Source: Clostridia bacterium (GTDB taxonomy: Bacteria; Bacillota; Clostridia; TANB77; UBA1234). From it: DNA of 64,000 nucleotides. Below are positions 553 through 58,537 of the stretch, piece after piece; position 1 is the stretch's first letter, and every line of letters begins with the position of its first letter. The DNA lies in contig JAFWYG010000005.1 in the NCBI GenBank assembly GCA_017522765.1, positions 571,048 through 635,047 of the forward strand, given 5' to 3'. A program made the position numbers and the translations under genes. The notes beneath the pieces were generated by a model. That model made no database searches and was not told where the DNA came from. It was given only the letters and a program-made list of their open reading frames with translations.

Positions 553-671
553 TTATAAGTCCTCCTCTTTTGTAAATCTATTTTTCCTAATTACTATTTT
601 ATAATATTTAATTCATAAGTCAACAAAAAACGACTCGCTTCATTTATTTACCAAGTATGGAAAAACATGCA

Positions 672-866: not shown

Positions 867-878
867 ATTCCTCTCTCC

Positions 879-1830: not shown

Positions 1831-1839
1831 CTCGTTCTT

Positions 1840-2646: not shown

Positions 2647-2754
2647 TACATCAAATCCAATCTAAAATTTAAGGGATATACCAAATCAGCATATCCCTTA
2701 GTGTCAAATCATTAATTTATATTTTTCGAGACATTTAAATATATTTAAGTTGTC

Positions 2755-3105: not shown

Positions 3106-3119
3106 ATAACCCTCCAAAT

Positions 3120-3722: not shown

Positions 3723-5497
3723 GGCAAGACCCCACTAACTATAATTTTAATATTTCCATCTACACTTACTACTTCCATATCAACATCTACTAATGCTTTC
3801 TCAAGTTTAATTCTTGAAACTAAGAAACCAAGTTGAGCATATTGACCAGATTCAGCTCTTAATGAAACATCTCCAGTTTCTAAGACATTGATTGATGTCA
3901 CTTTAACACCTGCTGGCATAATAAACATCAATTTACTCATGAAGTTTGGAACGTTGTATGTCTTTCTAGATTCTTTATTAATCTTTGTAATTATTGCACT
4001 TAATTTTTCTGTGATTGCTACATATTCATCAGCACGACCTTTTAAATAAGTAGCATCTTCATCAGCTTTTGCTATTGCTGCATTTACTTTAGAAATTTCA
4101 GAATTTACTTCTTTATCTTTTGCAAGAATTCTGTTGTTTATCATCGTTCCTGCAACTATATATCCTATTAATAATGAAGCAACAAAAACTGTAGTCTTGG
4201 TAAGTATACTATCTATTCTTCCATATGATGTATCTGTGATTTCTCCATCGCCAGCCTCATCAAGCAAACTTTCGTCAAAATCAACATTTCTCTTTTTCTT
4301 CTTACTACCTATAGGAGCATTTAGCTTTTTGATAAAATCTCCAGCAGCCACCTTGGCATTTTTTATTCTACCTTTTATATCAAAAGCTTTGATTTTATCT
4401 GTTACTACTTTTGCACCTTGCAAATTCGCAGCTTTCTTTGAAGCAGCTATGAAGTTTAAGTCTTTATCACTCATACCTACACCATCAAGCGCAAGAGCGA
4501 TAGCACTGTTTACTTCAATGATTTCTTTCATATTTTCAGAATCTCTACCAGCGAAGAATGGTTTTAATATCTTACATGGTGTATCTAAAAATACTTCTCC
4601 GAAATACAAATCAATATTATTTATAACTGCACCAGCACCTGTTATATAGATAGCTTTTGCATCTTTTAAGTACGGTGTAACAATTGCATCAACTTGTTGA
4701 CGGATATCATATAACACAGGGATTACTACATCAAGAATATTTCTTGACTCATCATCCATATCATAAGAATCTTCAATATAAGCAGAAACTTTTTTCAAAG
4801 CTTCATACGCTTTTGATGCAGAATTATATTTTTCAGCAAGTTTACTGATTATTTCTTGTGTGCCAAGCGGAAGTGAAGTTACATATTGGATTTCACTTCT
4901 GTGGAAAACTGTAATTGTAGTTTTATCTTCTATATTAACTACTATGGCTTCTTCATCGATACCTTGATTTTCAAATAAGTTTTTAACACTGATTGAAAGT
5001 GGACATATCGAATCAACTTTATATTTTTCATAATTTCGTCTTATATTTGCAAGTTCACCAGTAGACGTCATAGCACATATTGCTAAGTGCTTATCGATTG
5101 ATCCACTATTTAACGCAAGCTTAACTCTCATTTCCATAACAGAACTTGATAATGCATTCTCACCCATTTTTTCTTGGTATTCAGAAAGAATAAGTTGATG
5201 CATATCTTTTTTCTTAAGATTAGCAAATACGTCTGTAATATAGAATTCTTCATTTGAAAGAGCTAAAGCTACAGAAGTAGCATTATTACTGCTTAATGTG
5301 ATTTGTCCAGGTGTTGCTGGAGCACTCATTCCTACTTCTTCAGCAATTTCATCAATTGTGGCTTGCAGATTGTCATAAAACTTGACACCATATGCATCTA
5401 ACGTAAGTATTTGCCCTGCAATCTTTTCAGTTACAGATGTTACTTTAGCGTATTTAATCATATTTCTGTCAGTGTAAATTCCTAAACAACTTGGCAT
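3719..5497 (-). CDS. PilM-PilN fusion protein (actin-like ATPase domain, then TM and PilN-like domain)
   Basis: The N-terminal half has an actin/FtsA-like PilM architecture. After residue 440 comes a TM (TTVFVASLLIGYIVAGTMI) and a PilN-like tail. Confidence 0.6.
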   Translation of the reverse strand: MPSCLGIYTDRNMIKYAKVTSVTEKIAGQILTLDAYGVKFYDNLQATIDEIAEEVGMSAPATPGQITLSSNNATSVALALSNEEFYITDVFANLKKKDMHQLILSEYQEKMGENALSSSVMEMRVKLALNSGSIDKHLAICAMTSTGELANIRRNYEKYKVDSICPLSISVKNLFENQGIDEEAIVVNIEDKTTITVFHRSEIQYVTSLPLGTQEIISKLAEKYNSASKAYEALKKVSAYIEDSYDMDDESRNILDVVIPVLYDIRQQVDAIVTPYLKDAKAIYITGAGAVINNIDLYFGEVFLDTPCKILKPFFAGRDSENMKEIIEVNSAIALALDGVGMSDKDLNFIAASKKAANLQGAKVVTDKIKAFDIKGRIKNAKVAAGDFIKKLNAPIGSKKKKRNVDFDESLLDEAGDGEITDTSYGRIDSILTKTTVFVASLLIGYIVAGTMINNRILAKDKEVNSEISKVNAAIAKADEDATYLKGRADEYVAITEKLSAIITKINKESRKTYNVPNFMSKLMFIMPAGVKVTSINVLETGDVSLRAESGQYAQLGFLVSRIKLEKALVDVDMEVVSVDGNIKIIVSGVLP

Positions 5498-9885: not shown

Positions 9886-10623
9886 CTATCCTTCCGGTTC
9901 AGGATCTATATCTACAAACTTCATGTATTCTTCAACCATTTTAGGGTTATGACCAAACGCAATCGTGTGAAGCAAATATTGATTCACAAGTTCTTCATCA
10001 TTATCTTGAGTAAGAACTTCGTAACTTTTTAACAAATACTTTTTTAAACCTTCAATCTTACGATTAATCGGCTCACCTTTTAAAGTTGGTTTAAGTCTCG
10101 AAAGCGAAGAAGCATAAAATAATCCATAAAACAATAACGCTATAGCAGCAAATTCACAAAGGTCATACCAATAGCTGTCCTCCCCAGCAAAAATTGCGCA
10201 GAAAAACAAGAATATAATTGCCAAAATTATCATTTTTCCATGACCTTTATGCTTAGGGTTATTTTTTTCCAAAAGATTCATACCATCCACCAAGTCTTTA
10301 GCAGCATAAATATCAAGGTCAGAATAAAAAGAACTTTCAGTTCCCATTTTAAATCTTCCTTCTTTGATCTTACTAAGCAAAAACTTCTCACATTCAAAAG
10401 AAACGTTATCATCAATTACAATAAGAAATGGTCCATCAATTTTCACCTTTTTCTTGCGAATAAGGTCAGCTAACCCTGCCACAAAAACATTTTGATTCAT
10501 ATTTCTTCTACCATTTGGGTCATTAAGATATTTAGTAAGTATAGGAGAACCAAGTTCAAAAACTTCTTTGTAATATTCCAGATTGTCATCATAATCAGCT
10601 ACAATAAACTCTTTTTTACTCAT
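9886..10623 (-). CDS. Hypothetical membrane protein
   Basis: RBS AAGGA before the internal ATG (MSKKEF). One central TM (MIILAIIFLFFCAIFA). Preceded by a leader and terminator structure. Confidence 0.5.
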   Translation of the reverse strand: MSKKEFIVADYDDNLEYYKEVFELGSPILTKYLNDPNGRRNMNQNVFVAGLADLIRKKKVKIDGPFLIVIDDNVSFECEKFLLSKIKEGRFKMGTESSFYSDLDIYAAKDLVDGMNLLEKNNPKHKGHGKMIILAIIFLFFCAIFAGEDSYWYDLCEFAAIALLFYGLFYASSLSRLKPTLKGEPINRKIEGLKKYLLKSYEVLTQDNDEELVNQYLLHTIAFGHNPKMVEEYMKFVDIDPEPEG

Positions 10624-10671
10624 AAAAATCCTTTCCCTTGCCAAGATAAATAAAACAAAAAGCACTTTGTC

Positions 10672-10706
10672 CCATTGCTAGGACAAAGTGCTAAAACTTT
10701 GCTATA
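10672..10706 (-). terminator. Intrinsic terminator / attenuator hairpin immediately upstream of the 10623 start
   Basis: Perfect 12-bp stem agcactttgtcc/ggacaaagtgct, followed on the minus strand by TTTTTGTTTT. Confidence 0.55.
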
Positions 10707-10709
10707 CCA

Positions 10710-10960
10710 CCTACATACAATCATATGGATCCTCTATAACGTGAGAAAAAACGTCAAAACTTACTAGATTCAGTTTTGAAACTCAGAGGTGATTTTCGAG
10801 AAACTGTTCAACCACTGGCTTTCACCGTACCCAGCTCGCTTATTGGCCTAGAAGCAACCTACTCTCCTCTTCATAGTCATATATATTGGCACTAGTGTGC
10901 CGTACGAGTAGTATTATAACAAGGATTCTGTAGATTGTAAAGATATAAAATGGAGAATTT
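10710..10960 (-). promoter_or_regulatory. Candidate structured 5' leader (promoter, about 230 nt, then terminator); possible riboswitch or attenuator of unidentified class
   Basis: On the minus strand there is an extended -10 TGTTATAAT. A GC-richer 230-nt segment follows, ending in the terminator hairpin and then the RBS and ATG of the downstream gene. No known riboswitch consensus was recognised. Confidence 0.3.
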
Positions 10961-10968
10961 TAGTGTTT

Positions 10969-12510
10969 TTAAGCTTCTTCCATTTCTACTTTCTTTCCTT
11001 TATTTAATATAAATTTGGCTAAACTCTTAAAATATGCAAATTCTTCTGATTTTCTATAAATCAAGAATAATATTAAGTTAGGCACTACCAAGCATAGAGC
11101 TACTCTAGCGATGACATCCAACCACAAATTAGATATTGCAAAAGTCATTGATATTCCATAAGTAATAACGGCAATAACTACAAATAATAAGAAATATGTA
11201 AGATTTTCTTTTATATACTTTGAATATTTGCCACCAAGTAAATTTTTGTATACAAACTTAGGATATGTATAACACCATAAAGCCATGCTACTTATAATAG
11301 TTCCCATAAACACACCAGCAAGACCAAATGGTTTTATAAGTATGATAGAAAATATAATATTTAAAAGTGATTCGACAATTGGTACGTATTTAGTTTCAAT
11401 ACAAATACCTGCAGCATTATTAAATACATCATTAGTTTGTCTCATCATTTTTTGATATTGATTTATAACTAACACCACTAATACAGCTATCGAAAGTAAA
11501 AATTCTTCACCCATCCAAAGTTTTATAAAACTTTGCGTAACAATCAAGATTGAAATTGTTGAAAATGTTGTTATCCAGAAGTTAAAAAATCTAATTTTTT
11601 TATAAACGTCAAAAGAACGTTCCTTATCATTTTCTGTCAATAAATCTCCAACACTTGGCACTAAAGCAGATATCATTTGATTAACAACTTCTGAAACAGC
11701 ATAAATTATCATAAAATAATTCGAATATAATCCAGCAACGAGCAATCCAAAAAATTTAGAAATTATAATATTGTCTGTGCCATTTACAATAATACCGCCT
11801 ACTCTATGAAACAGTTGTGCCTTGATTCTAGCAAATATATCTTTTTCAAGTTCTTTATCTATTTTTTGTACATTCTTATCTTTTATAAAAGCATGTTTTT
11901 TATTTGCCACAAAAGTAATAACTATATTTTCAATTAATATACATACACTCTTAATTGCCAAATATAAATAATAATTTTTAGTAAAATACAAAATACCTAA
12001 TTGTGCTGCATTCATCGCAACAATATAAAACATATCTATTATGCTAACCATATAGTTTTCTTGATACGCATACAAAATCGAACGTTTATATGTTAATACA
12101 TATGATGCCAACGATTGTGATAAAAATAATATATACACAAGAACGAAGTTTAAGTCTAAAGTTGTTTCACCTATAAAAAAGTCCAAAAATGGTATCAAAG
12201 AAACACCTATAATAGCAACAATAACTGTAATCCAATTATATGCTTTTTTATATAAATTCATTAACGATTTAATGGTCTCTTTATCGTCATTTGCAATTGG
12301 TTTATATAAATTAAAAATAATAGCTTGTCCTATTCCAAGTTCAGCCAAACTTAACAATCCAATAACATTTGTAAATAAACCATTCGCACCTAAATATTCA
12401 GCATCTAATATTAAGACAAATATTTTTTGCGCAAGAAAAGTTATTAATATTTTTATTACCATCATCATTGTTGCAAATAAACTATTTTTTACCGAAGATT
12501 CTGTACGCAT
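10969..12510 (-). CDS. Polysaccharide biosynthesis flippase (Wzx/MOP family)
   Basis: 513 aa with about 14 TM segments. Typical Wzx N-terminus (LFATMMMVIKILITF...GLFTNVIGLLSLAELGIGQAII). Confidence 0.75.
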   Translation of the reverse strand: MRTESSVKNSLFATMMMVIKILITFLAQKIFVLILDAEYLGANGLFTNVIGLLSLAELGIGQAIIFNLYKPIANDDKETIKSLMNLYKKAYNWITVIVAIIGVSLIPFLDFFIGETTLDLNFVLVYILFLSQSLASYVLTYKRSILYAYQENYMVSIIDMFYIVAMNAAQLGILYFTKNYYLYLAIKSVCILIENIVITFVANKKHAFIKDKNVQKIDKELEKDIFARIKAQLFHRVGGIIVNGTDNIIISKFFGLLVAGLYSNYFMIIYAVSEVVNQMISALVPSVGDLLTENDKERSFDVYKKIRFFNFWITTFSTISILIVTQSFIKLWMGEEFLLSIAVLVVLVINQYQKMMRQTNDVFNNAAGICIETKYVPIVESLLNIIFSIILIKPFGLAGVFMGTIISSMALWCYTYPKFVYKNLLGGKYSKYIKENLTYFLLFVVIAVITYGISMTFAISNLWLDVIARVALCLVVPNLILFLIYRKSEEFAYFKSLAKFILNKGKKVEMEEA

Positions 12511-45431: not shown

Positions 45432-45608
45432 AACTCCTCACTTTCTTCTTTAGTAAAAATAAATTTCCATATATAACTATTTTATCAATCTTAAAAATTT
45501 GTGCAATAGTTTTTTCGCTATTTATATTAGTAGAAATTTTAAAAAAATAAAATGGGGAAACCCCCGGGCATCTCAATTAAGAGAATGCTCCGAGGGTTTC
45601 AAAATTTG

Positions 45609-46148
45609 TTAGATGAATTCCAGATTCCATTCAGTGGAACGCAGCGCCTTGAATTCCTCTTCGCCACGCTCCGCCATCTTGTATCTGTCGAGGTCAATGG
45701 TTTTAAGCCAGTGAACATAGCACGCAAAGCGCTTCAGCTCGTAATAAGGGAGCCACAGCTTTGCTGCGACATTAAGAACAATGTCAACGGTTCTGCCGTT
45801 CTCATTGATGTGCAGTGCGGGAGATGCCTGCTTACCCAGGAATGTGTAGTTTACGGTTGCTCCGTATCTCTTGGGAATCGGGGCATTTTCATGCACGCAC
45901 AGCTGACGCATCAGATGAATCAGATAGTAAAGCGGAAGCTTGGTTTCGCCGTTGCTACCACCTTCGCTCACCACTTCGGTGATTTTCGCCGTTGTCGGCT
46001 CCATCTTGAAAAGAATCTCATAGGTGCACGTGCTCCCGTCCTTCTTCTCGATGATTTTGGTTGCTCGAACCATTTTTTCGTTTCCTACGTTTGCTTTTTC
46101 CATGTTGTCATTCCTCCCATGGTTGTTAATCTTCGACTTTGTACTCAC
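45609..46148 (-). CDS. Hypothetical protein, paralog A of a tandem pair (about 50% GC)
   Basis: Alignable to the upstream paralog (TYEILFKMEP / EYEYKIHFHINP; PLYYLIHLMRQL / RPYMLLHLLTRVY; IPKRYGA / GFPRKAEA). Overlaps its partner by 23 bp. Complex terminator at 45555-45600. Confidence 0.55.
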   Translation of the reverse strand: MSTKSKINNHGRNDNMEKANVGNEKMVRATKIIEKKDGSTCTYEILFKMEPTTAKITEVVSEGGSNGETKLPLYYLIHLMRQLCVHENAPIPKRYGATVNYTFLGKQASPALHINENGRTVDIVLNVAAKLWLPYYELKRFACYVHWLKTIDLDRYKMAERGEEEFKALRSTEWNLEFI

Positions 46149-46674
46149 ATGTCCACATCTCAGCGTGAACGGGATTCAGAGTATGATAAGGACTTCTTTC
46201 ACCCTCAGCACACATCAGCTCATAGGTGGGTTCATCATAGAACTGCAAGTTCTGAATGTATCTCACCATCTTGAGAATGTCCGGTGTGCTCATCCAGTCA
46301 CCATTCACCTGCTGATCCAGTCTGTAACGCTTGCCAGACTTAAAAATCTTCAGTGCAGGATGGTGCAGATATTTGCCCTTGGGGTGCTGCTTCGGATTCT
46401 TTACATACTGTGCTTCAGCTTTGCGCGGGAAACCGATCTGTACATTGGTTTCTTCGTAAACGCGTGTCAGCAGGTGCAGCAGCATGTACGGCCGAATCGA
46501 AATCTTGCCTTTCTCAGAGACAAAACGCGGCAGGCCGTTTTCCGGGTTGATGTGAAAATGGATCTTGTACTCATACTCTTTTCCAGAGTTCGACTTGAGC
46601 ATCGCCGTGGCGTACACATGCAAACGCTTCTTGTCTTTGTCGGGGTTGCCAACTTTTCCTACATCAGCTTTCAT
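46126..46674 (-). CDS. Hypothetical protein, paralog B of the tandem pair (about 50% GC)
   Basis: RBS GCAGGAGG. Preceded by promoter-operator element R1. Confidence 0.55.
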   Translation of the reverse strand: MKADVGKVGNPDKDKKRLHVYATAMLKSNSGKEYEYKIHFHINPENGLPRFVSEKGKISIRPYMLLHLLTRVYEETNVQIGFPRKAEAQYVKNPKQHPKGKYLHHPALKIFKSGKRYRLDQQVNGDWMSTPDILKMVRYIQNLQFYDEPTYELMCAEGERSPYHTLNPVHAEMWTCEYKVED

Positions 46675-46755
46675 TGATAAAATTCCTCCTGCATTAGCAG
46701 ATTAGTCAAGAGCTTGTTGCCTTGCTTAGGATATATACAAGTATTCTTGCCGAGG

Positions 46756-46862
46756 TCATTATATCACGACTTTTAAATTATGTAAAGTGTCCCATTTTGG
46801 GACGGACTCTTCGTGGGACAAGTTGTCCCATAATAGGTCCGTCCCAAAATGGGACAAAAACA
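46756..46862 (-). promoter_or_regulatory. Promoter-operator element R1: nested palindromes (GTCCCA-N4-TGGGAC, GGACGGAC, GGGACAA-C-TTGTCCC) immediately upstream of a -35 TTACAT / -10 TATAAT promoter
   Basis: The 19-nt perfect inverted repeat gtcccattttgggacggac / gtccgtcccaaaatgggac flanks the 15-nt palindrome gggacaacttgtccc. About 90% identical to R2 at 47814-47922. Confidence 0.6.
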
Positions 46863-46892
46863 CGAGCGCCACAATATGTGACGCTCGCTTCC

Positions 46893-47753
46893 TTAATATG
46901 TGATTTCGTTGTAGGGTTTGCCCCAGTTGTTTCTTACCCATTCGTTCAACTTCTCAACACCCGCCTCATCAGTGCCAAACTTTCTGCGCATCATGAGAGC
47001 CATATCATTGAAGCTCATATCTTCAGTGAACTTCTCCGGCAACGGCAACTCCCACTTAAGTCTCATATGCTCATAAACACTTCTAAGAGCACAGGAAAGT
47101 TCAAAGACATTCTTTGTCTTGATTCCCCATGCTTTAACAGGTACATCAGGTTTCTTGTTCTGCATTTCATGAAGGCCTGCAGCCACAAAAAGTTCTGTGA
47201 AATACGCCCAGTTCCGACTGTTTCCCCAGCACTCGATTGCGAAGAGATATCCCTCAGCTCTTTCATAAAGCTTCAGACTAAGACCAGATTCCTTATCTTC
47301 CAGAAAGTTTGCGATGTTAAGGAGCTGTTTAGAAACTTCAGACGGCTTCTTGCCCCAAGGCTTTTTAAGTGCCGTACACAACTCCGAAAAAACTGGCTGC
47401 GTGTCTTCCTTTTTGTTAGGAAAAATACTAATATGTGTTTCGTACCAATTCGGGCCACTGCGAGGATTACCATTAAAGGAAAACATCAGCCCACAGCGCT
47501 TCATGTTGATTGCCGCATTCAGCAGCTTACAAAGATTGTCCCGATCGCTTTTTAATGCGACATCAAGATATGCGAAGTGATGATCGCCAGCATCACAGCC
47601 AACAGTCTCAACACCTTTTTTGTGACAAAGCCACAGAAGTTCCTCCAGCATTTTATTACCTTCAGCCCATTCCGGGATAGCCACTTTAAGCTCAGCTTCA
47701 CTCAGCCCACCGATTGGAATCGATTTGCCGCAGTTCCACTTCGACCTATTCAT
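46893..47753 (-). CDS. Hypothetical protein (286 aa, about 48% GC) bracketed by R1 and R2
   Basis: RBS GGAGAAGGAGG before ATG (MNRSKW). The plus-strand ORF 46722..47555 is low-complexity antisense junk. Confidence 0.55.
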   Translation of the reverse strand: MNRSKWNCGKSIPIGGLSEAELKVAIPEWAEGNKMLEELLWLCHKKGVETVGCDAGDHHFAYLDVALKSDRDNLCKLLNAAINMKRCGLMFSFNGNPRSGPNWYETHISIFPNKKEDTQPVFSELCTALKKPWGKKPSEVSKQLLNIANFLEDKESGLSLKLYERAEGYLFAIECWGNSRNWAYFTELFVAAGLHEMQNKKPDVPVKAWGIKTKNVFELSCALRSVYEHMRLKWELPLPEKFTEDMSFNDMALMMRRKFGTDEAGVEKLNEWVRNNWGKPYNEITY

Positions 47754-47813
47754 AGAACGTTTCCTCCTTCTCCTATAGATGATTAGGATCTACAAATTTG
47801 TTTATTAAACAGG

Positions 47814-47922
47814 TGGATTATATCACGGCTTTTAATTTATGTAAAGTGTCCCAAAGGTGGACGGACTCTTCGTAGGACAATTTGTCCCGCAATGGGTCCG
47901 TCCCCTAGTGGGACAACAAAAA
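47814..47922 (-). promoter_or_regulatory. Promoter-operator element R2 (second copy of R1) driving the 46893..47753 gene
   Basis: Same palindrome architecture and the same -35/-10 (TTACAT ... GATATAAT). Followed upstream by the terminator gcgacttgagaaatcaagtcgc+T5 of the giant gene. Confidence 0.6.
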
Positions 47923-47951
47923 GCGACTTGATTTCTCAAGTCGCCTCTCTT

Positions 47952-50900
47952 TTACTCTTTAAACATATTTACGAATTCTTCTTCATTTATTTCGCCATGT
48001 TCTAACAAATATTCAACTACATTAGACATCTTATCTTTGTTATCTCTAATTAATTCTTTAACCTCTTCAAAACATTTTTTCAAGATTCTATTTTCTTCAT
48101 CATATATTGTTTTTTCCAATGCTGTATTATTTGAAGATACTTGTGCTAAACCTAAATCGGACATGCCGTATCTTGTAATCATGTTTCTAGCAACTCTTGT
48201 AGCATGCTCTAAATCAGAGGTTCCACCACTCTTATAGAATCCTAAGAACACTTCTTCAGCAGCAATACCTGCTAGCGATCTCTTTATCGAATTCATTAAT
48301 TCTTCTTTCGAATGAACGTAAGCCGCATTCGAATTGTCATACTCAACATATCCTAAAGCTCCCCAACCTTCTGCTTTACACGTAATCTTTTTGATACCAC
48401 ATCTCTTAACTAACAAGTATCCAACAGTTGCGTGACCAACTTCGTGAATCGCAGTCTTTCTCATTTCTTCTGGAGTAATCTTACTTGGATCAGCCATAGA
48501 TGCTCCGTCAAGCATTGAATTTGTAATCTCTTGTATTGTTGGAATATCTTCTGCTGTTATCGTTGTTACATCAGTTGGTGATGCAGTACCACTCTTAGAT
48601 TTTTCTGCAAAATTCTTAGAATGATTAACCATTGTCTTTGAAAATACTTTATCTGCAAATCTACCATTGCCAATGTTATCAACCTTGTAGAAATACTTCA
48701 TAACTTCTTTTACTTTTTCTATCGCACCATCGCTTAAAGTTAATCCACTCTTTTCAACTTTTCTTCTAAATATTTCTGTAAGTTCAGAATCAGAATAATC
48801 TTCAAAGTTAAATGTGTAACCAATTCTAGATGCAATACCAGGATTTATATCCAAGAAGTCTCTCATCTCTTTTTTGTATCCAGCAAAAATTACTACAAAC
48901 TCACCTTTATGATCTTCCATTGCTTTGATTAAAGTTGCAACAGCTTCTGCACCATAATCATGTCCCGGACCACCATGACCATTTGCAAGTGAGTATGCTT
49001 CATCTACGAATAATACGCCTCCCATTGCACGTTCTACAACTTCATTTGTTTTAATTGCAGTTTGTCCAACATATGCAGCAACTAAATCTTTTCTTTCAAC
49101 TTCTACAAGTTTATTCTCATGGATAACTCCCATATCAAATAACATCTTTGCAATGATTCTTGCTACAGTTGTTTTACCTGTACCTGGATTTCCAGTGAAT
49201 ATCATATGCAGATTTGAATCAGGAAGATTTATATTTTGTTTTTCCGCCTCTTTAATAAACGATACATATGTGCCTAAAGAAATTATTTCTTTCTTCAAAC
49301 TTTCCATACCAACAATCTTAGCTAAAGCTTCTTCAACATTTGCACTAGTACTAATTCCGCTTTCAGTAAGCTCTTCAATAGTTGGAATGTCTGCTTCAGT
49401 TATAAGTTCTATATTTTCTCTATCGGCCAAAGCATGTTTCATCAAAGTTTTTTGAATTACTTTATCAACGAAACGACCATTACCAAAGTTCTTTCTCTTA
49501 ACGAAATAATCACAAACTCTTTTTAATGGAACATCAATATCGTCAGCAAATTTAAAACCTGCTTTCTTCATCTTCATATAGAACATTTCCATTAATTCTT
49601 TTACGTTATAATCTTCGAAGTTAAATGTATAACCAATTCTAGATGCAATACCAGGATTTACATCGAGGAATGTTTTCATCTCATCTCTGTAACCTGCAAA
49701 GATTACTATCAAACTTTCTTTATGATCTTCCATCGCTTTAATCAATGTTGCAATAGCTTCAGCACCAAGTTTATCAGATGCAAGTGTGTATGCTTCGTCA
49801 ATAAATAGTACACCGCCCATTGCATGTTCTATTATCTCATTAGTTTTAATAGCAGTTTCTCCACCATGAGTACCAATTAAATCTTTTCTTTCAACTTCAA
49901 CAAGTTTATTCTCATGGATAACTTCCATATCAAATAGCATCTTCGAAATAATTCTAGCGATTGTAGTTTTACCAGTACCCGGATTACCTGTGAATATCAT
50001 ATGCATATTTGTGCTAGGAATGTTTAGTTTCTTTTGTTCTGCTTTCTTAACAAATTTAGCATACTTACCAAAAGTCCTAATTTCATTCTTCACATTTTCC
50101 ATACCGATAATCTTTTCAAGCATCTCTTCAGCAGTTTCATGCTTACCATTTTTAGACTCGTTTTGATTTAATTGTTCAATGCTTGGAATGTCTTTCTCAG
50201 TAATCATCTTCAAGTCTTCAGAATCACCCAAAGCATGATTCATCAAAGTTTCTTGAATTACTTTATCTACAAAACGACCATTACCAAAACTCTTTCTCTT
50301 CGAATAATAGCTAAAGATTCTCTTAAGTGGAACGTAAACATCATCACCACATTCAAAACCATTTTTTCTAATCTTCACACGGAAGATTTCGATCAATTCT
50401 TCAACTGTATAATCAGGGAAATCAAAAGTATAACCTATTCTAGAAGCTATACCAGGATTGATATCCAAGAAGTCTTTCATCTCTTTTTGATATCCTGCAA
50501 AAATAACAACTAGCTTATCTTTGTGATCTTCCATTGCTTTAATTAAAGTTGCAATAGCTTCACTACCAAAGTCGTTTTTACTTTCACTTGCTAAAGTGTA
50601 TGCTTCATCAACGAATAACACACCACCCATAGCTTTATCTATAACTTCAGTTGTTTTTGTTGCAGTTTGTCCAATATATTCTGCAACTAAATCTTTTCTC
50701 TCAACTTCAACAAGTTTATTTTCTTTTACAACACCAAGATCAAAAAGCATCTTCGCCATAATCCTTGCAACAGTTGTCTTACCAGTACCAGGATTACCTG
50801 TGAATATCATATGCATATTTGAAGAAGCTACTTTCAAACCATTTGCTTTGGCTTGCAATTGGAAGAACATATACTTTTCAAACTCTTTAACTTTTTCTTT

Positions 50901-53774
50901 TACACTATCTAGACCAATGATGTTATCCAAAGATTCTTTCTTATATATGTTTGGTGGGAACACCAATTCATTTCTTGAATTTGCGTAGTTAGCAAGATAA
51001 TTAACAATCTCCGGCTTACTAAATGGCATGAACTTTTGATTCAAGCTCACATACTCATTAAATTGTTTTTTATATTCCTCTTCTGTCTCTCTAAGCTTCG
51101 CAGACAAATCCGGATTCAATATTTTCTTGTAACTTACAAACATATCATCTAAAGAATATGTTGGAATATTAATTATATTATTTTGATAAACGAATTTAAG
51201 TCTTGCATCAAGATCCAAGAAAGATTCAATTTCATCAGGCGTTGCATTGATAATTACATAACCTTTAGAAGTAATATTTGCAAGCACGTCAATAGCATGT
51301 TTTATCATCTTCTTATCAAGATAATTTTTGTTGTAAAAATAGAAATCAGAAACAAATTCGCTAATAGAATCAAGCACATAAATCGCATTTGCTTCTAAAT
51401 TGTTTCTTCTATTAACTGTATATCCACCTCTGTATTTGATGTTGTTATTATCTTTTTTGAAACTTGGTTTTTCCTCTATTTCCAAATCATAATAAACTAA
51501 CTTTTCATCTTTATTGATTCTTAAATCAGTAGTGTGATAATAAAGTTTTGCAAAATGAGATGCCGGAATTTTTCTTACATTATCAATTTGATTTTGATTC
51601 TTAATAAGTTCAATAATCTTATCAATAAAGTTATTCTTTGCAGTCTCATCTTCACCAGCAACAATGCAGTGGAAATTAGTTTTACTACTTTCCATGATGC
51701 TGTTAATTGTCACATTCAGATTCTCAATCTTACCATCATAAGAACCTTTTAAATCTTGAAGTTTTTCTTCTTTCTTTGCATTTAACTCATCAATTTTTTC
51801 TTGTATAAAAGTATTTCTCTTAGCATCAATCTCATCTTTGTGAGCAGCATAAAACTCTCTATCTTCTTGTATCTTATGCTCTTGACCAGACTTAGTTAAA
51901 TACAAAATATATGCAGCAACAACAATTGCACAATAAGGCATTCTACAACTATATGAACCGCACAAATCATCAACTTCAACATTTGGTTTTCTATCTAAAG
52001 CTTTTGCTTTTTCCCAACTTTCTATCGGATTAATTTTATTAATATCAAAATCCGAAAATTGTGAATCAGCACAAGAGAAAAGTTCATCAAAATTCATGTA
52101 ACCATCTTTATCTAAAGATCTGCGAATTCTTATCATGTTTCTTTTTACAATTTCTTGTGCAAAATCAAAAGCTTTATCACTTACATTTTTCAAACCATTC
52201 TTTGTATTCCATTTAAAAGTAAAGAATCCATTATCATCTTTATTTACGTTTTTATATTTTTCTCTTGCAGAAAGCTTATCTCTCAAAAGATTTTTATTCT
52301 TCAAATACAATATGTATGCAGCCAAACGTTTTGGACAAGATTGATACTTACAAGTAAAACAAGAATCAGTACGAAAGAACTTTCCAGTACCAACTTTCCA
52401 AGTTCCACCTTTTACATTCACTCTGAAATTTTTATCTGCATTAGCTTTTTCAAGGAACTCATCATCAGTTTCATCACGATCACAAAAACCATATAATTTA
52501 GAACCAATTGCAACCGTATTATTTTCAAAAGCTAAACTAAGACTACCACGTTCAATTATATTTAGCGCAACTTCAATAGACTTATCATTTGCAGCATTTA
52601 AAAAGTCATCTTCGTCCCAATCAAAATCATAAGCTTTATTTTCAGAATTTCCAGCCTCAATTCGCGCAACAATTTGATCATAATTTAATGCAGGTGCTTC
52701 TGATTTTGGTGTAGACACTTCTTGTTCTGATTTAACTGGTGGTTCTAGTTTTGGTTTTTCAGCCAAGTGTACCGTCTTGTCCGCTGGCGGCGGCACAACC
52801 TTCTTTGCATTCTCATCTCTAAATTTAGGAGGTATCGCACCTTTAACATTCTCCATCTTAGGAGGTGTAGGATTTTTTATCGGTTCCTCTAGTTTAATGT
52901 GTTCTTCAACTTTAATTGGTTCGTCGATTTTAATTGGATCATCAAGTTTAATTGGTTCTTCAATCTTTATCGGATCTTCTACCTTGATTGGATCTTCGAT
53001 TTTTATTGGTTCCTCTACCTTAACCGTTTCTTCTTTCTTAATTGGTTCAACCGGAACCACTGGCTCTACCAAGGTTATTGGAGATATATCATCAACGATA
53101 GGTTCATCAACTTTTATAGGTTCGATGGGTTTTACTTGAGGAACTTCATCCTCCTCAGTTAAAACATTAAGCGTAATCGGTTCATCCTTTACCAACGGTA
53201 CAAAATCTGAAGGCAAATCAGAAAGTTTAATCGAAGTAGAATCTTCTTCTTTTTTTGTTGCTTCAGCCTTCGGCTCCATTCTCTTAGGAGCAGGTTTGGC
53301 CTTAAGCTTTGTCACATACTCATCAACCAATTTCTCGTATAATCTATATGCATCTTTATATTCATCCGTTCCATTTGCATATCTTTTAATACTGCTCGCA
53401 ATATAAAAAATCTCAACAAAAGAAACTATATCATCAAAATTATTTTCAAACTTTAACTCGTCAACAGTTTTAATAATTGCTGTGTTTTTCTCTTCATCAG
53501 ACAAAGCTTCAAATCTCAACATTCTAGCATTGTCTTCAAGCAAAGAAATAATATTTCCTATGTGCGAAGCATTAACTCCATCCTCAGAAAAATACATAGG
53601 AAAACGCGCAACAATCTTTTTATTATCAACTTCAAAAGCTCGATTCGCATCATCAGGACAAGCTATAAAATATTTTTTCGTTTCTTCATCAGGTATTCCA
53701 TAACCGATTAAATATTTATTTAACAGTATCTCTAAAACCGAAACACCATCGTTGAAACCAGTTTCCTTATCCAT
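47952..53774 (-). CDS. Giant (1940 aa) multidomain protein: N-terminal domain, EPIK proline/glutamate repeats, Cys-rich duplicated modules, three tandem SpoVK/CbbX-type AAA+ ATPase modules and a C-terminal FtsH-type M41 zinc metallopeptidase domain; no TM segment
   Basis: Walker A three times (MIFTGNPGTGKTT[VI]ARI) and Walker B three times (GGVLF[VI]DEAY[TS]LA). HEVGHATVGYLL...GGTSDLEHATRVARNMITRYGMSD is the M41 HExxH plus helical bundle. The AAYILYL Cys-flanked motif is duplicated. Strong RBS AGGGGGA. Confidence 0.8.
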   Translation of the reverse strand: MDKETGFNDGVSVLEILLNKYLIGYGIPDEETKKYFIACPDDANRAFEVDNKKIVARFPMYFSEDGVNASHIGNIISLLEDNARMLRFEALSDEEKNTAIIKTVDELKFENNFDDIVSFVEIFYIASSIKRYANGTDEYKDAYRLYEKLVDEYVTKLKAKPAPKRMEPKAEATKKEEDSTSIKLSDLPSDFVPLVKDEPITLNVLTEEDEVPQVKPIEPIKVDEPIVDDISPITLVEPVVPVEPIKKEETVKVEEPIKIEDPIKVEDPIKIEEPIKLDDPIKIDEPIKVEEHIKLEEPIKNPTPPKMENVKGAIPPKFRDENAKKVVPPPADKTVHLAEKPKLEPPVKSEQEVSTPKSEAPALNYDQIVARIEAGNSENKAYDFDWDEDDFLNAANDKSIEVALNIIERGSLSLAFENNTVAIGSKLYGFCDRDETDDEFLEKANADKNFRVNVKGGTWKVGTGKFFRTDSCFTCKYQSCPKRLAAYILYLKNKNLLRDKLSAREKYKNVNKDDNGFFTFKWNTKNGLKNVSDKAFDFAQEIVKRNMIRIRRSLDKDGYMNFDELFSCADSQFSDFDINKINPIESWEKAKALDRKPNVEVDDLCGSYSCRMPYCAIVVAAYILYLTKSGQEHKIQEDREFYAAHKDEIDAKRNTFIQEKIDELNAKKEEKLQDLKGSYDGKIENLNVTINSIMESSKTNFHCIVAGEDETAKNNFIDKIIELIKNQNQIDNVRKIPASHFAKLYYHTTDLRINKDEKLVYYDLEIEEKPSFKKDNNNIKYRGGYTVNRRNNLEANAIYVLDSISEFVSDFYFYNKNYLDKKMIKHAIDVLANITSKGYVIINATPDEIESFLDLDARLKFVYQNNIINIPTYSLDDMFVSYKKILNPDLSAKLRETEEEYKKQFNEYVSLNQKFMPFSKPEIVNYLANYANSRNELVFPPNIYKKESLDNIIGLDSVKEKVKEFEKYMFFQLQAKANGLKVASSNMHMIFTGNPGTGKTTVARIMAKMLFDLGVVKENKLVEVERKDLVAEYIGQTATKTTEVIDKAMGGVLFVDEAYTLASESKNDFGSEAIATLIKAMEDHKDKLVVIFAGYQKEMKDFLDINPGIASRIGYTFDFPDYTVEELIEIFRVKIRKNGFECGDDVYVPLKRIFSYYSKRKSFGNGRFVDKVIQETLMNHALGDSEDLKMITEKDIPSIEQLNQNESKNGKHETAEEMLEKIIGMENVKNEIRTFGKYAKFVKKAEQKKLNIPSTNMHMIFTGNPGTGKTTIARIISKMLFDMEVIHENKLVEVERKDLIGTHGGETAIKTNEIIEHAMGGVLFIDEAYTLASDKLGAEAIATLIKAMEDHKESLIVIFAGYRDEMKTFLDVNPGIASRIGYTFNFEDYNVKELMEMFYMKMKKAGFKFADDIDVPLKRVCDYFVKRKNFGNGRFVDKVIQKTLMKHALADRENIELITEADIPTIEELTESGISTSANVEEALAKIVGMESLKKEIISLGTYVSFIKEAEKQNINLPDSNLHMIFTGNPGTGKTTVARIIAKMLFDMGVIHENKLVEVERKDLVAAYVGQTAIKTNEVVERAMGGVLFVDEAYSLANGHGGPGHDYGAEAVATLIKAMEDHKGEFVVIFAGYKKEMRDFLDINPGIASRIGYTFNFEDYSDSELTEIFRRKVEKSGLTLSDGAIEKVKEVMKYFYKVDNIGNGRFADKVFSKTMVNHSKNFAEKSKSGTASPTDVTTITAEDIPTIQEITNSMLDGASMADPSKITPEEMRKTAIHEVGHATVGYLLVKRCGIKKITCKAEGWGALGYVEYDNSNAAYVHSKEELMNSIKRSLAGIAAEEVFLGFYKSGGTSDLEHATRVARNMITRYGMSDLGLAQVSSNNTALEKTIYDEENRILKKCFEEVKELIRDNKDKMSNVVEYLLEHGEINEEEFVNMFKE

Positions 53775-53914
53775 CGTAAATCCCCCTAATTATCATTTGT
53801 ATAGCTAATTTAAATTATATCTCACTTTGCAAAAAATTTGTATAGTAATTATCAAATAAAAAATAGAAAAAGATGCCATAAAATTTTCATTTATAGCATC
53901 TTAAAAATTATCTC

Positions 53915-54957: not shown

Positions 54958-55761
54958 TTACTCATTTATTAATTGGTTGTCTGCTATTAAAACGCTCTTT
55001 CCATTTTCAATTTTAACGCAATCCTTATATCGATTATTAAACAAATCTTTATATTCTATATAAATTTCACTTATACTAGGCACCTCAACGCCGCTATATT
55101 GATACATTCCTAAATCCGTTATTACAAGATTCATTTCCTTTTCTGAGGCAACATGAATTCTATCTTCATATTTATTTAAATATACTTTTTCAATTGTTGG
55201 CTCTGCATCATTTTCATTCTTATATAATTTTGAAATAATATATGATTTGTCAACATCTATTGCAGCCATCGTTTGCCCAGAATTTAAAATTCTTATAATA
55301 TATTTGTCGGAAGTTTCTTTTTGGTTATCAGAAAAATATATGTATCCATCTAAACCGCTATTAGCAAATCTAGAATTATTTGGAAGTTCTAGTCTTACAT
55401 TTAAGTTTGGACGCTGTGATTCTCTAACATTTTCTGTGTTCGCCTCTCTGTCCATTCTAGTAATGACTATTAAAAATACTGCACTAATTAGAGTTCCTGC
55501 ATATGTACCCAAGAAAGATAACCAATCATAATTCAGTGTTAAATTTTGAGTGAATTTAAAAACAGAAAACCAATCATATCTATCAAAGTAATACAATATT
55601 ACTGGTCCAAAAAATATCCAAAATATAAACTGATGTATCGCTTTATCTCTTTCATTACACATTTTATATTCAACAATTCCTTTTCTTATGTATTCTATAA
55701 TTCTATATACCGGAAACGGAAATATAATAATTATTAACAATAATAAATGCCAAACTTTCAT
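54958..55761 (-). CDS. Membrane protein (3 N-terminal TM plus a soluble domain), hypothetical; 24 bp downstream of the OLD-family gene
   Basis: TM helices LLLLIIIIFPFPVY, IFWIFFGPVILYYF and LGTYAGTLISAVFLIVIT. Confidence 0.5.
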   Translation of the reverse strand: MKVWHLLLLIIIIFPFPVYRIIEYIRKGIVEYKMCNERDKAIHQFIFWIFFGPVILYYFDRYDWFSVFKFTQNLTLNYDWLSFLGTYAGTLISAVFLIVITRMDREANTENVRESQRPNLNVRLELPNNSRFANSGLDGYIYFSDNQKETSDKYIIRILNSGQTMAAIDVDKSYIISKLYKNENDAEPTIEKVYLNKYEDRIHVASEKEMNLVITDLGMYQYSGVEVPSISEIYIEYKDLFNNRYKDCVKIENGKSVLIADNQLINE

Positions 55762-55784
55762 TTTAAATCTCCTTTTTCGCGAAA

Positions 55785-57560
55785 TTATAACAGCTTTCCA
55801 ATAAGTATGTCAAATTTTTTTATTGTTTCTTCATCATATAGAAACTCTTTTTTTTCTATTTTTTTCAGTACAGCTAAAGAATAGTATTTTTTTTCACCTT
55901 CATAATCTTTATTATTAATCCCAATTTCATTTCTATCTCTGTCTGAAAACAATGATTCTATGGTAATACTTTGTTCTTCTTTTGGAAGTCGTTCTGCATC
56001 TACAAATATAATATCATTTTCTTGTACTAAAAGTTTTTTTACCAGAACCTTATATTCATTCCTACCATCTCTATCCTGATCCAACAGAACTTTATATTTA
56101 TACCCCCACCCCATTAATATAGAAACTAAATTGTGAATGTTCGAAACTCCTGATGATGGAATTATATTACAGGTATCCTCGATTCCTTTTTGTATAAAAT
56201 ATGCTTTTAAATAATTAAAATCCGAAATTCCTTCTGTAATAATATTATTTTTTTCTGTACTCATTGCTGAAAAACTATACCCCATTTTCATTCCTATAGC
56301 TTCAAGAATTGGAGTAATAGTCTCTTGTTTTCCTGCCATAGAATGCGGCAAAGAATGGTATGCATTACTTATATTACTATTTTCATTTTCATCTTTTATT
56401 ATGGTTCTAACTCTATCTAAATGTTCTTGATATATCATAGAAGGATGTTGGGTTGTATATATTATTTGATTGTTTTTAGATACAAAATTTTCAAATAATT
56501 CTAGTATCATTTTTTGTGCATTAACATGTAAAAACACACCTGGTTCATCTAGCAAAACAACAAAATTTTCCAAATTTGTTTTTTGAGTTTGCGCAAGCAA
56601 CTGAATATAAAAGCTCAAATACCATTTCAGTCCATTACTTCTTTCGCTTAAATTCAGATATTTCTTGTTCGTTTTCACAAGAAAATTTATATATTCATTA
56701 TTAAAATTCATTCTTAATTCAACATTATCTTGTTTATAAAATTGATTAAATCCTTCCATAAATTTTTGAATTTTTTTATTGATTTCTTCCTGAAAATTAT
56801 ATTTATCGCCATCACAAGATAAAATCCAAAATCTTTTTACCTCATCCTTTTCAACACCTATTACTTTCAAAAAACTAGTCAACACATCATCATGCTTTCC
56901 GTTATCTAACACACTGTTTTTCGTATATTTTGATTCTAATTCTACATTTTTTAAAAATATAAAACGTGGTAATAAAGAATATATTGTTTTTATACGTTTA
57001 ATAAACTCTTCAAAAGTTTTTAAAAATTCTGAATATTTACTATTTCTACTCAAATTTTTAATCATAGTATCCATCATAACTGAATATACAAAAACTTTAT
57101 TCTCTATATTTTTAATATTTTCAATCATTTTATTCATAGTAATGTTATGACTCGGTTCACTAAAAGTAATTCCTTTAGATAGGTTTATCAATTCATTTTT
57201 ATAAAATTGTATATTATTATTTTTGCTTATTATTTCAGATAATCCACCTTCAAATTCAACAGCGCCATTTCCTTTTATTGTAAATTTTGTTTCTTTTTCC
57301 GAAAGATAAATTTCCTTTTCTTTTTCATAAGGGAATGCAATCATTGAAATTACAATTTCATCGTTTATATAATTTTTATTTTTGTCTTCATCATTTAAAT
57401 TTGAAAATCCATCAAAATTCAATTTACTAATAGCGTTAAGAAAATTACTTTTACCAGATTCATTTTTACCAACAATTGTTGTAATTTCTCCCAAATCCAT
57501 TCTATTATTTTCTTCTCCAAAAGACTTAAAATTTTTTATTTTTATAGATGTTATTTTCAT
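55785..57560 (-). CDS. OLD-family nuclease (N-terminal ABC-type ATPase plus C-terminal TOPRIM), class-1 architecture
   Basis: Walker A GKNESGKSN, signature-like LSERSNGLK, Walker B VVLLDEPGVFLH, and H-loop TTQHP. TOPRIM IITEGISD and LLDQDRDG. Confidence 0.8.
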   Translation of the reverse strand: MKITSIKIKNFKSFGEENNRMDLGEITTIVGKNESGKSNFLNAISKLNFDGFSNLNDEDKNKNYINDEIVISMIAFPYEKEKEIYLSEKETKFTIKGNGAVEFEGGLSEIISKNNNIQFYKNELINLSKGITFSEPSHNITMNKMIENIKNIENKVFVYSVMMDTMIKNLSRNSKYSEFLKTFEEFIKRIKTIYSLLPRFIFLKNVELESKYTKNSVLDNGKHDDVLTSFLKVIGVEKDEVKRFWILSCDGDKYNFQEEINKKIQKFMEGFNQFYKQDNVELRMNFNNEYINFLVKTNKKYLNLSERSNGLKWYLSFYIQLLAQTQKTNLENFVVLLDEPGVFLHVNAQKMILELFENFVSKNNQIIYTTQHPSMIYQEHLDRVRTIIKDENENSNISNAYHSLPHSMAGKQETITPILEAIGMKMGYSFSAMSTEKNNIITEGISDFNYLKAYFIQKGIEDTCNIIPSSGVSNIHNLVSILMGWGYKYKVLLDQDRDGRNEYKVLVKKLLVQENDIIFVDAERLPKEEQSITIESLFSDRDRNEIGINNKDYEGEKKYYSLAVLKKIEKKEFLYDEETIKKFDILIGKLL

Positions 57561-57597
57561 TTTTCTTCTCCTTATAATATTTCGTTTTTATAAAAAA

Positions 57598-58065
57598 CTA
57601 ATGTTCTAGCCAATACCCAAAGTTGTTATACCCATCATCCTGCACCCAGTCATATACATTAGCTATTTGAGAAAAATAAACATCCTCACCTCTGCAATCT
57701 TTTCCTAAAATACCAAAGCAAATGCTTCCTTTGTTTGATGTCAAACCAGTTCTCATATCTTTTATTTTGTGAATATATACACCAATAATTTTATTCCCTC
57801 TTTTATAGCTTTCTTGAAGTTCGTACCTCACAAATTTTCTGCTAGCCGTTTCTTCTCCTATTAATACAACTGTAACACTGGTACCTTTCAATTGTTCATC
57901 AATCCAATTGTATATAGCGGGATCTCCCCCTAATTTTATTTTTTCAAAATCTGCTTTATCAATAAAACCAGCCGCTTTATTTCCTGGTATTACCCAACTA
58001 TTTCTAACTACATTTGCTCTATTAACATCGTTCGCATAGTGAAAACTAAAAAATACATTTTTCAT
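57598..58065 (-). CDS. TIR-like domain protein of the ThsB / DUF1863 type (Thoeris TIR component-like)
   Basis: VFFSFHYANDVNRANVVRNSW ... SVTVVLIGEETASRKFVRYELQESYKRGNKIIGVYIH ... VYDWVQDDGYNNFGYW. This is the pattern and the conserved C-terminal tail that I recall for Bacillus ThsB and DUF1863, not verified by search. Confidence 0.65.
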   Translation of the reverse strand: MKNVFFSFHYANDVNRANVVRNSWVIPGNKAAGFIDKADFEKIKLGGDPAIYNWIDEQLKGTSVTVVLIGEETASRKFVRYELQESYKRGNKIIGVYIHKIKDMRTGLTSNKGSICFGILGKDCRGEDVYFSQIANVYDWVQDDGYNNFGYWLEH

Positions 58066-58081
58066 ATAAATCCCTCCATTA

Positions 58082-58537
58082 TTATATAAATTTCAACAAA
58101 ATTGTAATAACTATAAACAATATGTAATATCCCACTATAGAAAATGAAGTAATCGACTCTAACATCAAGCCCACTATTTCATATTTAAAATCTGTATTTT
58201 TGGGCTTCATATTATATATCTCGATTGTTTTTAATTTTCCTTTGTTTAAATCATTTACAAACACATTGTATTTTTGAACATATACTCGTTCTAACGCCAA
58301 ATAATACGCATCCATTAAAGCTCCAATAAAAGTTATTACTATACCAATACACCAGTATGGTTCAAAGATTTCTATAGCCGATAAAACCGTGGCATAAATT
58401 GTGTATATAACCGCAACAAGAGCTTTTGTGTTAGAACTATTAGTCGCCATACGCGAAATATTGTTTTGTAAAAATCCCAAATATGTACAGACAGATTGTT
58501 CGTTTTTGTTTTTTAAGATATTACTATATTTTTTCAT
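58082..58537 (-). CDS. Small 3-TM membrane protein (151 aa), candidate membrane effector/partner of the TIR-like gene
   Basis: TM helices ALVAVIYTIYATVLSAI, WCIGIVITFIGALMDAYYL and SFSIVGYYILFIVITILLKFI. 16-bp gap to the TIR-like gene. RBS GAGGAGG. Promoter TTGATA-17-TAAGAT upstream. Confidence 0.55.
   Translation of the reverse strand: MKKYSNILKNKNEQSVCTYLGFLQNNISRMATNSSNTKALVAVIYTIYATVLSAIEIFEPYWCIGIVITFIGALMDAYYLALERVYVQKYNVFVNDLNKGKLKTIEIYNMKPKNTDFKYEIVGLMLESITSFSIVGYYILFIVITILLKFI

Follow-up and report, generated by a model that had tools for sequence, protein, structure and literature searches.

AAA+ proteases form a textbook class of few architectures, comprising FtsH, Lon, and Clp/HslU or proteasome activators that work with separate peptidases. 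We are aware of no characterised AAA+ protease in which the peptidase is covalently joined to two ATPase modules or more. What kind of protein, then, is encoded by a gene in which three AAA+ modules of the SpoVK/CbbX type are followed by an FtsH-type M41 peptidase? This gene, referred to here as the triple-AAA/M41 gene, lies in a stretch of 64,000 nucleotides (nt) from a Clostridia bacterium (assembly GCA_017522765.1, contig JAFWYG010000005.1, positions 571,048 to 635,047). The whole stretch is termed the window, and its own numbering is used below unless another locus is named. The architecture is real, conserved and unusual, and is surprising to AAA+ specialists. We favour, with a probability of roughly 0.6, the reading that the gene product would be a stand-alone, cytosolic, ATP-dependent and substrate-selective zinc metalloprotease of a previously undescribed family.

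Three SpoVK/CbbX-type modules joined to an M41 peptidase

A single uninterrupted coding sequence of 1940 codons runs along the minus strand of the window, at exactly the coordinates and with the length, 1940 amino acids (aa), that an initial annotation of this DNA had given (Table 1). Its N-terminus is kept in five homologues that are 60-72% identical overall to the window protein (P0001-P0005). The open frame, together with its domain content, is far beyond what would be expected by chance in sequence of 32.8% guanine plus cytosine (GC), and the GC content of the gene itself, 32.5% as against 32.8% for the window, indicates native composition. Because terminators flank the gene on both sides, it is predicted to be monocistronic, a transcription unit of its own.

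The C-terminus of the protein is an M41 peptidase domain with an HExxH motif, as the initial annotation had proposed, since both a strong Pfam match and an HEVGH motif are found there (Table 1). Over about 170 residues the M41 part aligns to the FtsH structures 3kds, 2ce7 and 7tdo (E ~1e-21). In this alignment HEVGH falls over HEAGH, and GGTSDLEHAT over GAANDIERAT, of Thermotoga maritima FtsH (2ce7/3kds), and the latter pairing places the third zinc ligand at D1854. The M41 catalytic residues are therefore not lacking, a weakness to which the initial annotation had seen its reading exposed: HEVGH and D1854 coincide with the zinc-binding positions of T. maritima FtsH, and H1777, E1778, H1781 and D1854 are each at least 90% conserved among 58 family members.

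The resemblance to FtsH (MEROPS M41; TIGR01241) extends beyond this C-terminal domain with its HExxH motif and Asp third ligand. Motor and protease share one polypeptide, as they do in FtsH and Lon, and the motor belongs to the classical assemblage of AAA+ ATPases with aromatic pore loops. In contrast to FtsH, the window protein has neither transmembrane (TM) helices nor a periplasmic domain, it carries three modules of the SpoVK/CbbX clade (AAA_lid_6, GY sensor 1, sensor-2 Arg) rather than a single FtsH-type module (AAA_lid_3), and its N-terminal region of ~950 aa is unrelated to FtsH. The maximum Kyte-Doolittle mean over 19 residues is just 1.36 and falls within a cysteine module, so that the protein is without a TM helix, in agreement with the earlier reading. 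Classification as FtsH proper was considered and rejected, given that the score with TIGR01241 is 122.6 bits where 600 would be required, that this match comes from the M41 part alone, and that two of three defining features of FtsH (the TM pair; the clade and number of AAA modules) are absent.

The three modules preceding the peptidase are recognised by Pfam as AAA (PF00004) cores, each then followed by AAA_lid_6. Walker A (GNPGTGKT) and Walker B (VLF[VI]DE) occur once in every module, as do the motifs FAGY, NPGIASR and GNGR (residue positions in Table 1). The top NCBIfam models are SpoVK (723 bits), EccA (623 bits) and CbbX (583 bits), each matching three stretches. Pfam, NCBIfam and the motif scan thus agree on three SpoVK/CbbX-type modules with threefold Walker motifs, which is what had been claimed. 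In a PDB search the modules match CbbX (3zuh, 3syl; 3e-52) and EccA1 (9lur; 4e-51) best, with no FtsH below 1e-10; the best match of module 1 is CbbX (E=3e-52, 180.7 bits). The features that delimit the SpoVK-EccA-CbbX clade, namely a GY sensor 1, an Asn before the Arg-finger region and a sensor-2 Arg, are present three times over. Another idea considered was that M41 became fused before FtsH and SpoVK split; the closeness to CbbX and the lack of an FtsH match below 1e-10 argue against such a basal position.

Comparison with CbbX, SpoVK and EccA is accordingly the closest available for the motor. In addition to the clade signatures, the window protein shares with these proteins a variable N-terminal region, presumably serving substrate choice, as has been said of the clade. 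Known members differ in being single-module proteins of 290-600 aa that are non-degradative, while the window protein has three modules and an M41 domain, and its gene lies outside a RuBisCO, type VII secretion system (T7SS) or sporulation context. All three modules read NPGIASR where CbbX has NPGFRSR; Ala replaces Arg at Asn+4 and the Arg at +6 is retained, and one arginine of the second region of homology (SRH) is hence absent. Membership of SpoVK proper (TIGR02881, an equivalog model for a single module of ~320 aa) was rejected, as the 723 bits are made up of three times ~240 against a cut-off of 423, the architecture differs, and there are no conserved sporulation neighbours.

How old is the triplication? 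The initial annotation had described the modules as near-identical, also in DNA, and had deduced a recent internal duplication. Both points need revision, and they are the only ones in an otherwise correct domain reading. Pairwise identity between modules 1-3 is 58-64% in amino acids and 68-72% in nucleotides, reaching 72-78% in the best 300-nt stretch. In each of the homologues P0001-P0005, every module is 66-94% identical to its positional orthologue and 54-67% identical to paralogues. Since modules are closer to their positional orthologues than to their paralogues, the triplication is old and precedes the divergence of the P0001-P0005 lineages. In relatives with two modules, the first is nearest to window module 1 (66-75%) and the second to module 3 (60-70%); therefore, the middle module is the one that was added in the three-module lineage.

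These comparisons also bear on the possibility that the triple repeat is a collapsed or expanded assembly artefact, or that the open frame is a chimera or pseudogene. Three direct repeats of ~800 nt could in principle confuse an assembler. Nevertheless, copies that are 68-78% identical in DNA are too diverged for mis-assembly, the frame stays open without interruption over 5.8 kb at 32.5% GC, and the same three-module order with module-specific orthology is found in independent assemblies from different samples. With the three-module layout recurring in such assemblies at 60-79% identity, an artefact of the kind that the initial annotation had allowed for is excluded, and an error of any of these kinds is exceedingly improbable.

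The first 946 residues have no match in Pfam (E<=10), PHROGs or a PDB profile search, yet they fall into several distinct parts (Table 1). The N1 domain is followed by a Pro/Glu-rich linker that is hypervariable or missing among homologues. The (E/D)PIK proline repeats that had been remarked upon are part of this linker and form a tandem array of ~9 copies with an 18-nt period (52882-53048). Beyond it lie two tandem Cys4 modules of ~130 aa, each with four conserved cysteines (C431/C472/C475/C480 and C568/C605/C610/C615) and ending in a C-x2-4-C-x4-C cluster that precedes an A-A-Y-I-x-Y-L helix. The two Cys-flanked AAYILYL modules noticed at the outset are thus present, and they are conserved family-wide: among 12 diverse family members, six of the eight cysteines are invariant and the other two nearly so. 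The order of a Cys cluster and then an AA-hydrophobic (AAYILYL) helix suggested a SWIM zinc finger (PF04434; CxCxnCxH), an assignment that was dropped because there is no Pfam match even at E<=10 and the pattern C...C-x2-4-C-x4-C is without a conserved His. A predicted helical connector leads to M0, a module of ~250 aa that always stands immediately N-terminal to the first active AAA module and looks like a degenerate AAA+ domain. The paired Cys4 modules (Cys4x2) and M0 are both new as conserved sequence modules, and neither has a counterpart in Pfam or the PDB.

A family with one to three modules

The M41 domain alone was searched with HMMER against 1.84 billion cluster representatives (50% identity), and a local hidden Markov model (HMM) of the window-type modules was run over the 150 best matches. 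Among these, at least 57 complete representatives have SpoVK-type modules directly before M41, with one module in 24, two in 27 and three in six; in one other protein, an extra, weak fourth module is seen. Homologues with the same triple-AAA and M41 layout, for which the initial annotation had advised a search, therefore exist in six representatives, but the family is not restricted to three modules and ranges from one to three. A word-index homologue search was weak on this low-complexity-rich protein, giving five matches for the full protein, none for the M0 alignment and mostly fragments for M41, and pattern-based locus scans recovered close relatives only (4 genome, 7 metagenome and 1 viral loci).

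HExxH is kept in all 57 complete representatives; every module in them has Walker A, two modules lack Walker B, and pore loops of the Y[IV]G type predominate. When the window protein is included, 57 of 58 members lack TM-like segments, as no 19-residue stretch in them reaches a Kyte-Doolittle mean of 1.6. HMMs of the N-terminal parts of the window protein indicate that Cys4x2 and M0 are common to most family members. All traceable members come from metagenomes or metagenome-assembled genomes (MAGs) of Eubacteriales/Clostridia, from human gut, rumen and omasum, and databases name them just "AAA family ATPase" or "ATP-dependent Zn protease". By these comparisons the window protein is a member of a conserved, previously undescribed family and not a singleton.

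[quoted passage not shown] The initial view that the architecture is undescribed is upheld to this extent.

Different parts of the protein have diverged to very different degrees. Relative to the homologue P0002, identity is 82-93% in the AAA modules, 79% in M41 and 78% in M0, and falls to 58% in Cys4x2, 54% in N1 and 37% in the linker; in the same comparison the products of the flanking genes Tmk, Hpt and methyltransferase are 84-93% identical. Such a gradient would fit a protein whose engine is conserved and whose recognition end diversifies.

Two observations concern proteins at the margins of this family. Four of the proteins retrieved (P0040, P0046, P0051 and P0107) have two tandem M41 domains without SpoVK-type modules, an arrangement that is unusual for the M41 family, and two HEAGH motifs were found in each of P0040 and P0046. 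In L012, positions 753-2480 encode another protein, of 575 aa, that has a single SpoVK-type module but lacks M41; it lies on the contig of the two-module M41 member, 2.4 kb upstream.

Genomic setting

The window is chromosomal, as genes for IleRS, GluRS and RNase J are present. Its features are collected in Table 1. Upstream of the methyltransferase gene that precedes the triple-AAA/M41 gene lies a cluster of defence-type genes (54958-58537) with an OLD-like ATPase/TOPRIM and a ThsB-like TIR gene with its PDC-M50A-like partner, and genes for HicB and Xre-type regulators are found farther upstream.

Table 1. Positions of the gene, its encoded domains and motifs, and neighbouring features in the window.
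Feature	Position (nt)	Strand	Basis or remarks
Complete coding sequence, 1940 aa	47952-53774	-	Start ATG 53774-53772, stop TAA 47954-47952
Ribosome-binding site AGGGGGA	53781-53787	-	6 nt 5' of the ATG; sequence read
Terminator-like hairpin and T-run	53870-53902	-	End of upstream methyltransferase gene; sequence read
Intrinsic terminator GGCGACTTGA-gaaa-TCAAGTCGC + TTTTTGTT	47923-47944	-	8 nt past the stop codon
N1 domain, aa 1-170	53265-53774	-	No Pfam match; restricted to the close subgroup and L010
Pro/Glu-rich low-complexity linker, aa 176-370	52665-53249	-	Includes the 18-nt (E/D)PIK repeat
Two tandem Cys4 modules, aa 371-640	51855-52664	-	No Pfam or PDB sequence match
Connector, predicted as a long helix or coiled coil, aa 641-699	51678-51854	-	AlphaFold2 (AF2) secondary structure (helix 262-306 of model); HMM matches in family members
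M0, family-specific module, aa 700-946	50937-51677	-	No intact Walker A or B
AAA+ module 1, aa 947-1207	50154-50936	-	Walker A 993, pore loop YIG 1033, Walker B 1052, FAGY 1092, NPGIASR 1106, GNGR 1164
AAA+ module 2, aa 1217-1477	49344-50126	-	Walker A 1263, Walker B 1322 (both intact), FAGY 1359, NPGIASR 1373, GNGR 1431; pore loop degenerate (HGG); lineage-specific inserted middle module
AAA+ module 3, aa 1482-1742	48549-49331	-	Walker A 1528, Walker B 1587 (both intact), pore loop YVG, FAGY 1630, NPGIASR 1644, GNGR 1702; its orthologue in two-module relatives is the module next to M41
FtsH-type M41 peptidase domain, aa 1743-1940	47955-48548	-	Pfam PF01434, E=9e-30, match aa 1766-1935
HEVGH, aa 1777-1781	48432-48446	-	Motif scan
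Third zinc ligand D1854	48213-48215	-	Alignment to FtsH structures
286-aa gene	46893-47753	-	Downstream of the triple-AAA/M41 gene at five syntenic loci; others L001 16830-17786, L007 18854-19723, L008 16545-17597, L009 13940-14797
267-aa gene	54958-55761	-	No family match; precedes the OLD-like gene
OLD-like ABC-ATPase/TOPRIM gene	55785-57560	-	In defence-type cluster 54958-58537
ThsB-like TIR protein gene	57598-58065	-	PADLOC ThsB 9e-60, PDC-M50B 9e-52
PDC-M50A-like gene	58082-58537	-	Adjoins the ThsB-like TIR gene

This setting raises the possibility of an anti-phage or abortive-infection effector. On this view, the Zn modules at the N-terminus would detect a phage protein, upon which a target of phage or host origin would be broken down by the AAA+ tower and its M41. 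Besides the OLD-like, ThsB-like, PDC-M50A-like and HicB genes adjoining in the window, such a role is suggested by the syntenic relatives, which carry other defence-type genes upstream (SocA/Panacea, NERD and UvrD), and by a two-module relative (L010) that is followed by an AriB/DUF4435-like gene. A large monocistronic protein that combines an NTPase with an effector would suit it, as would an N-terminus whose evolution outpaces that of the flanking housekeeping genes and, by a wide margin, that of the motor. By analogy, a AAA ATPase is paired with a protease in IetAS, and proteases serve as effectors of large NTPase sensors.

A backbone of methyltransferase, triple-AAA/M41 gene, 286-aa gene, Tmk-like gene, Hpt and a 411-aa gene is kept in four related assemblies (L001, L007, L008 and L009), and it is between these anchors that defence genes and small inserts vary; thus, the gene flanks a variable hot spot and is not its cargo. 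The initial placing of the gene at the boundary of a defence-like island is right as to position, but the gene belongs to the conserved backbone and the defence genes of its relatives differ. The five defence-adjacent loci hence amount to one syntenic locus. When neighbours were clustered over 16 loci, no gene was found to be conserved beside family members beyond the syntenic close group, and the protein is therefore a stand-alone unit. Other, independent loci, those of more distant family members, mostly have housekeeping neighbours, namely Lgt, an EamA transporter, a flavin reductase and a metallophosphatase in L012, a ROK-family gene in L013, DUF1847 and TrkA in L011, a radical SAM gene in L017, and SpoVG-domain proteins, RsgA and Maf in L003.

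The likeness to IetAS, which consists of the AAA ATPase IetA and the subtilase IetS, is likewise limited to the pairing of a AAA ATPase with a protease. In the window protein the protease is M41 and not S8, a single gene replaces a two-gene operon, and the context is not consistently defence-related. PADLOC gives IetA 100.8 bits over the three modules, and the NCBIfam model IteA (NF042959) gives 91.7 bits against a cut-off of 510. These weak matches have been counted in favour of defence, but a score of 92 bits against 510 reflects generic AAA similarity, there is no IetS-like partner, and membership of IetA was rejected on this score and on the absence of an S8 protease among the neighbours. 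The native GC of the gene, the lack of any PHROG match and a single IMG/VR match also speak against a defence role, to which the conserved gene context gives no support and which we regard as unlikely.

Two of the loci just mentioned deserve a brief description. In L010, from a roe-deer omasum MAG, the AriB/DUF4435-like gene (PARIS-type TOPRIM; 10467-11234) is directly downstream of the two-module member, and a 503-aa protein without a match comes next. In L019 (IMGVR_UViG_3300029106_000323), a two-module member (positions 1-4482) sits at one edge of a contig of 53 kb that IMG/VR classifies as viral, and genes nearby encode an HTH_38 protein, a recombinase zinc-ribbon fragment and an RNase T-like exonuclease.

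On the downstream side, the window contains a 103-nt direct repeat, termed R1/R2, whose copies at 46758-46860 and 47817-47919 are 84% identical. Each copy has a 34-nt palindrome (TGTCCCA..GGGACGGAC / GTCCGTCCC..TGGGACA) directly upstream of a TG-extended promoter that is close to consensus (TTTACA-17-TATAAT). The predicted promoters would drive two minus-strand genes, of 182 aa (46126-46674) and of 286 aa (46893-47753), neither with a family match, and the palindrome looks like a putative shared operator for a repressor. The 20-nt core has five matches in the window at two or fewer mismatches, compared with none in shuffled sequence, and it recurs at the corresponding place in L009. The repeat-associated genes lie within a block of high GC (45500-47900; 45.1%) in a window of 33% GC. 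The triple-AAA/M41 gene had been described as directly upstream of genes regulated by R1/R2; those genes do lie downstream of it, but they are transcriptionally separated by the terminator at 47923-47944. The 286-aa protein has no Pfam, PADLOC or PHROG match, and is 55% identical between the window and L001, compared with 84-93% for flanking housekeeping genes. Differing inserts separate its gene from the triple-AAA/M41 gene among the five syntenic loci.

Proposed function of the triple-AAA/M41 protein

The sequence requirements for ATP binding and hydrolysis are complete in all three modules, and aromatic pore loops are present in modules 1 and 3. In the proposed mechanism for a soluble, substrate-selective protease, the M41 domains would form a hexameric proteolytic ring, as in FtsH, on which the AAA+ modules would stack as rings, with three active tiers and possibly an inactive M0 tier. 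We infer stacked tiers because relatives with one, two and three modules share the N-terminus and M41; this constancy is more readily explained by tiers added to an unchanging hexamer than by planar pseudo-rings that would have to differ in stoichiometry. The Zn modules at the N-terminus, which evolve fast, may choose a narrow set of substrates or adaptors, and substrates would be unfolded and threaded via the pore loops into the M41 chamber. The most likely role would then be the regulated breakdown of specific cytosolic proteins in these Clostridia, rather than general membrane-protein quality control.

Several points weigh against this proposal. AF2 monomer models, built from alignments of 5-6 sequences each and used for secondary structure only, are poor, with a mean predicted local distance difference test score (pLDDT) of 56 for aa 947-1940 and 61 for aa 371-946. 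They are too poor for a judgement on how the modules pack against each other, which leaves ring stacking, hexamer formation and an AAA-like fold of M0 as proposals. Within the motor, one of the two SRH arginines is Ala, with Arg rarely found at that position across the family, and this loss could lower or alter ATPase coupling; in addition, the pore loop of module 2 is degenerate (HGG). Those SpoVK-EccA-like clade members that have been characterised are non-degradative chaperones (PMC11513918). Finally, a human-gut lineage (L003-L006) has a frameshift inside HEVGH while its ATPase part is intact, which suggests that some of the function, at the least, may not require the protease.

The frameshift itself is due to a single inserted C, which separates the Val codon of HEVGH from its Gly codon (L003 14895-14915, and likewise in L004-L006). 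It puts M41 in a separate overlapping reading frame of 167-176 aa and leaves a 1650-aa ATPase part, and 12 contigs, obtained from several samples, are identical in this sequence. The protease could have been inactivated here in a fixed manner, or else the site could require +1 frameshifting.

Some of these points would also suit a remodelling chaperone like SpoVK, CbbX or EccA, non-degradative and possibly linked to sporulation, in which M41 would be mainly an oligomerisation platform or vestigial. SpoVK is the top NCBIfam model, characterised clade members are chaperones of narrow specificity (PMC11513918), and the L003-L006 lineage has kept its 1650-aa ATPase part in 12 contigs without a continuous M41. 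However, HExxH and the Asp ligand are conserved across the 57 complete representatives, which indicates selection for catalysis; the SpoVK score of ~240 bits per module is under the equivalog cut-off of 423, and there are no sporulation genes among the conserved neighbours. We consider this alternative improbable, and less probable than a role in defence.

Within the preferred reading of a soluble protease, the arrangement of the modules invites comparison with type II AAA+ unfoldases, in which tandem modules form stacked hexameric rings that feed a protease chamber. ClpA/ClpC-ClpP and Cdc48/p97-20S also have tandem AAA+ modules in one chain, but their two modules are of different clades and the protease is a separate subunit. 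The window protein, in contrast, has up to three paralogous modules of one clade in addition to a degenerate one, with a covalent protease and a stacking that is as yet only proposed. We know of no solved precedent for a tower of stacked AAA+ tiers on a soluble FtsH-like M41 ring. A bolder and distinctly more tentative version of the proposal can be outlined nonetheless. The family might be the first peptidase-coupled branch of the SpoVK-EccA-CbbX clade, and might stack as many as four AAA+ tiers, three of them active and one degenerate, into a tower above a soluble M41 ring. The number of tiers would be evolutionarily adjustable (1, 2 or 3), and a rapidly diversifying N-terminus of Zn modules would mark out specific, possibly phage, proteins for breakdown.

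All members of the family come from uncultured gut and rumen Clostridia, which sets a practical limit on their study. Even so, a family of at least 57 clusters contradicts the generalisation that the SpoVK/CbbX/EccA clade is non-degradative, and its series of one, two and three modules on an otherwise constant scaffold offers a route to ask what extra AAA+ tiers add, be it unfolding power or substrate selection.

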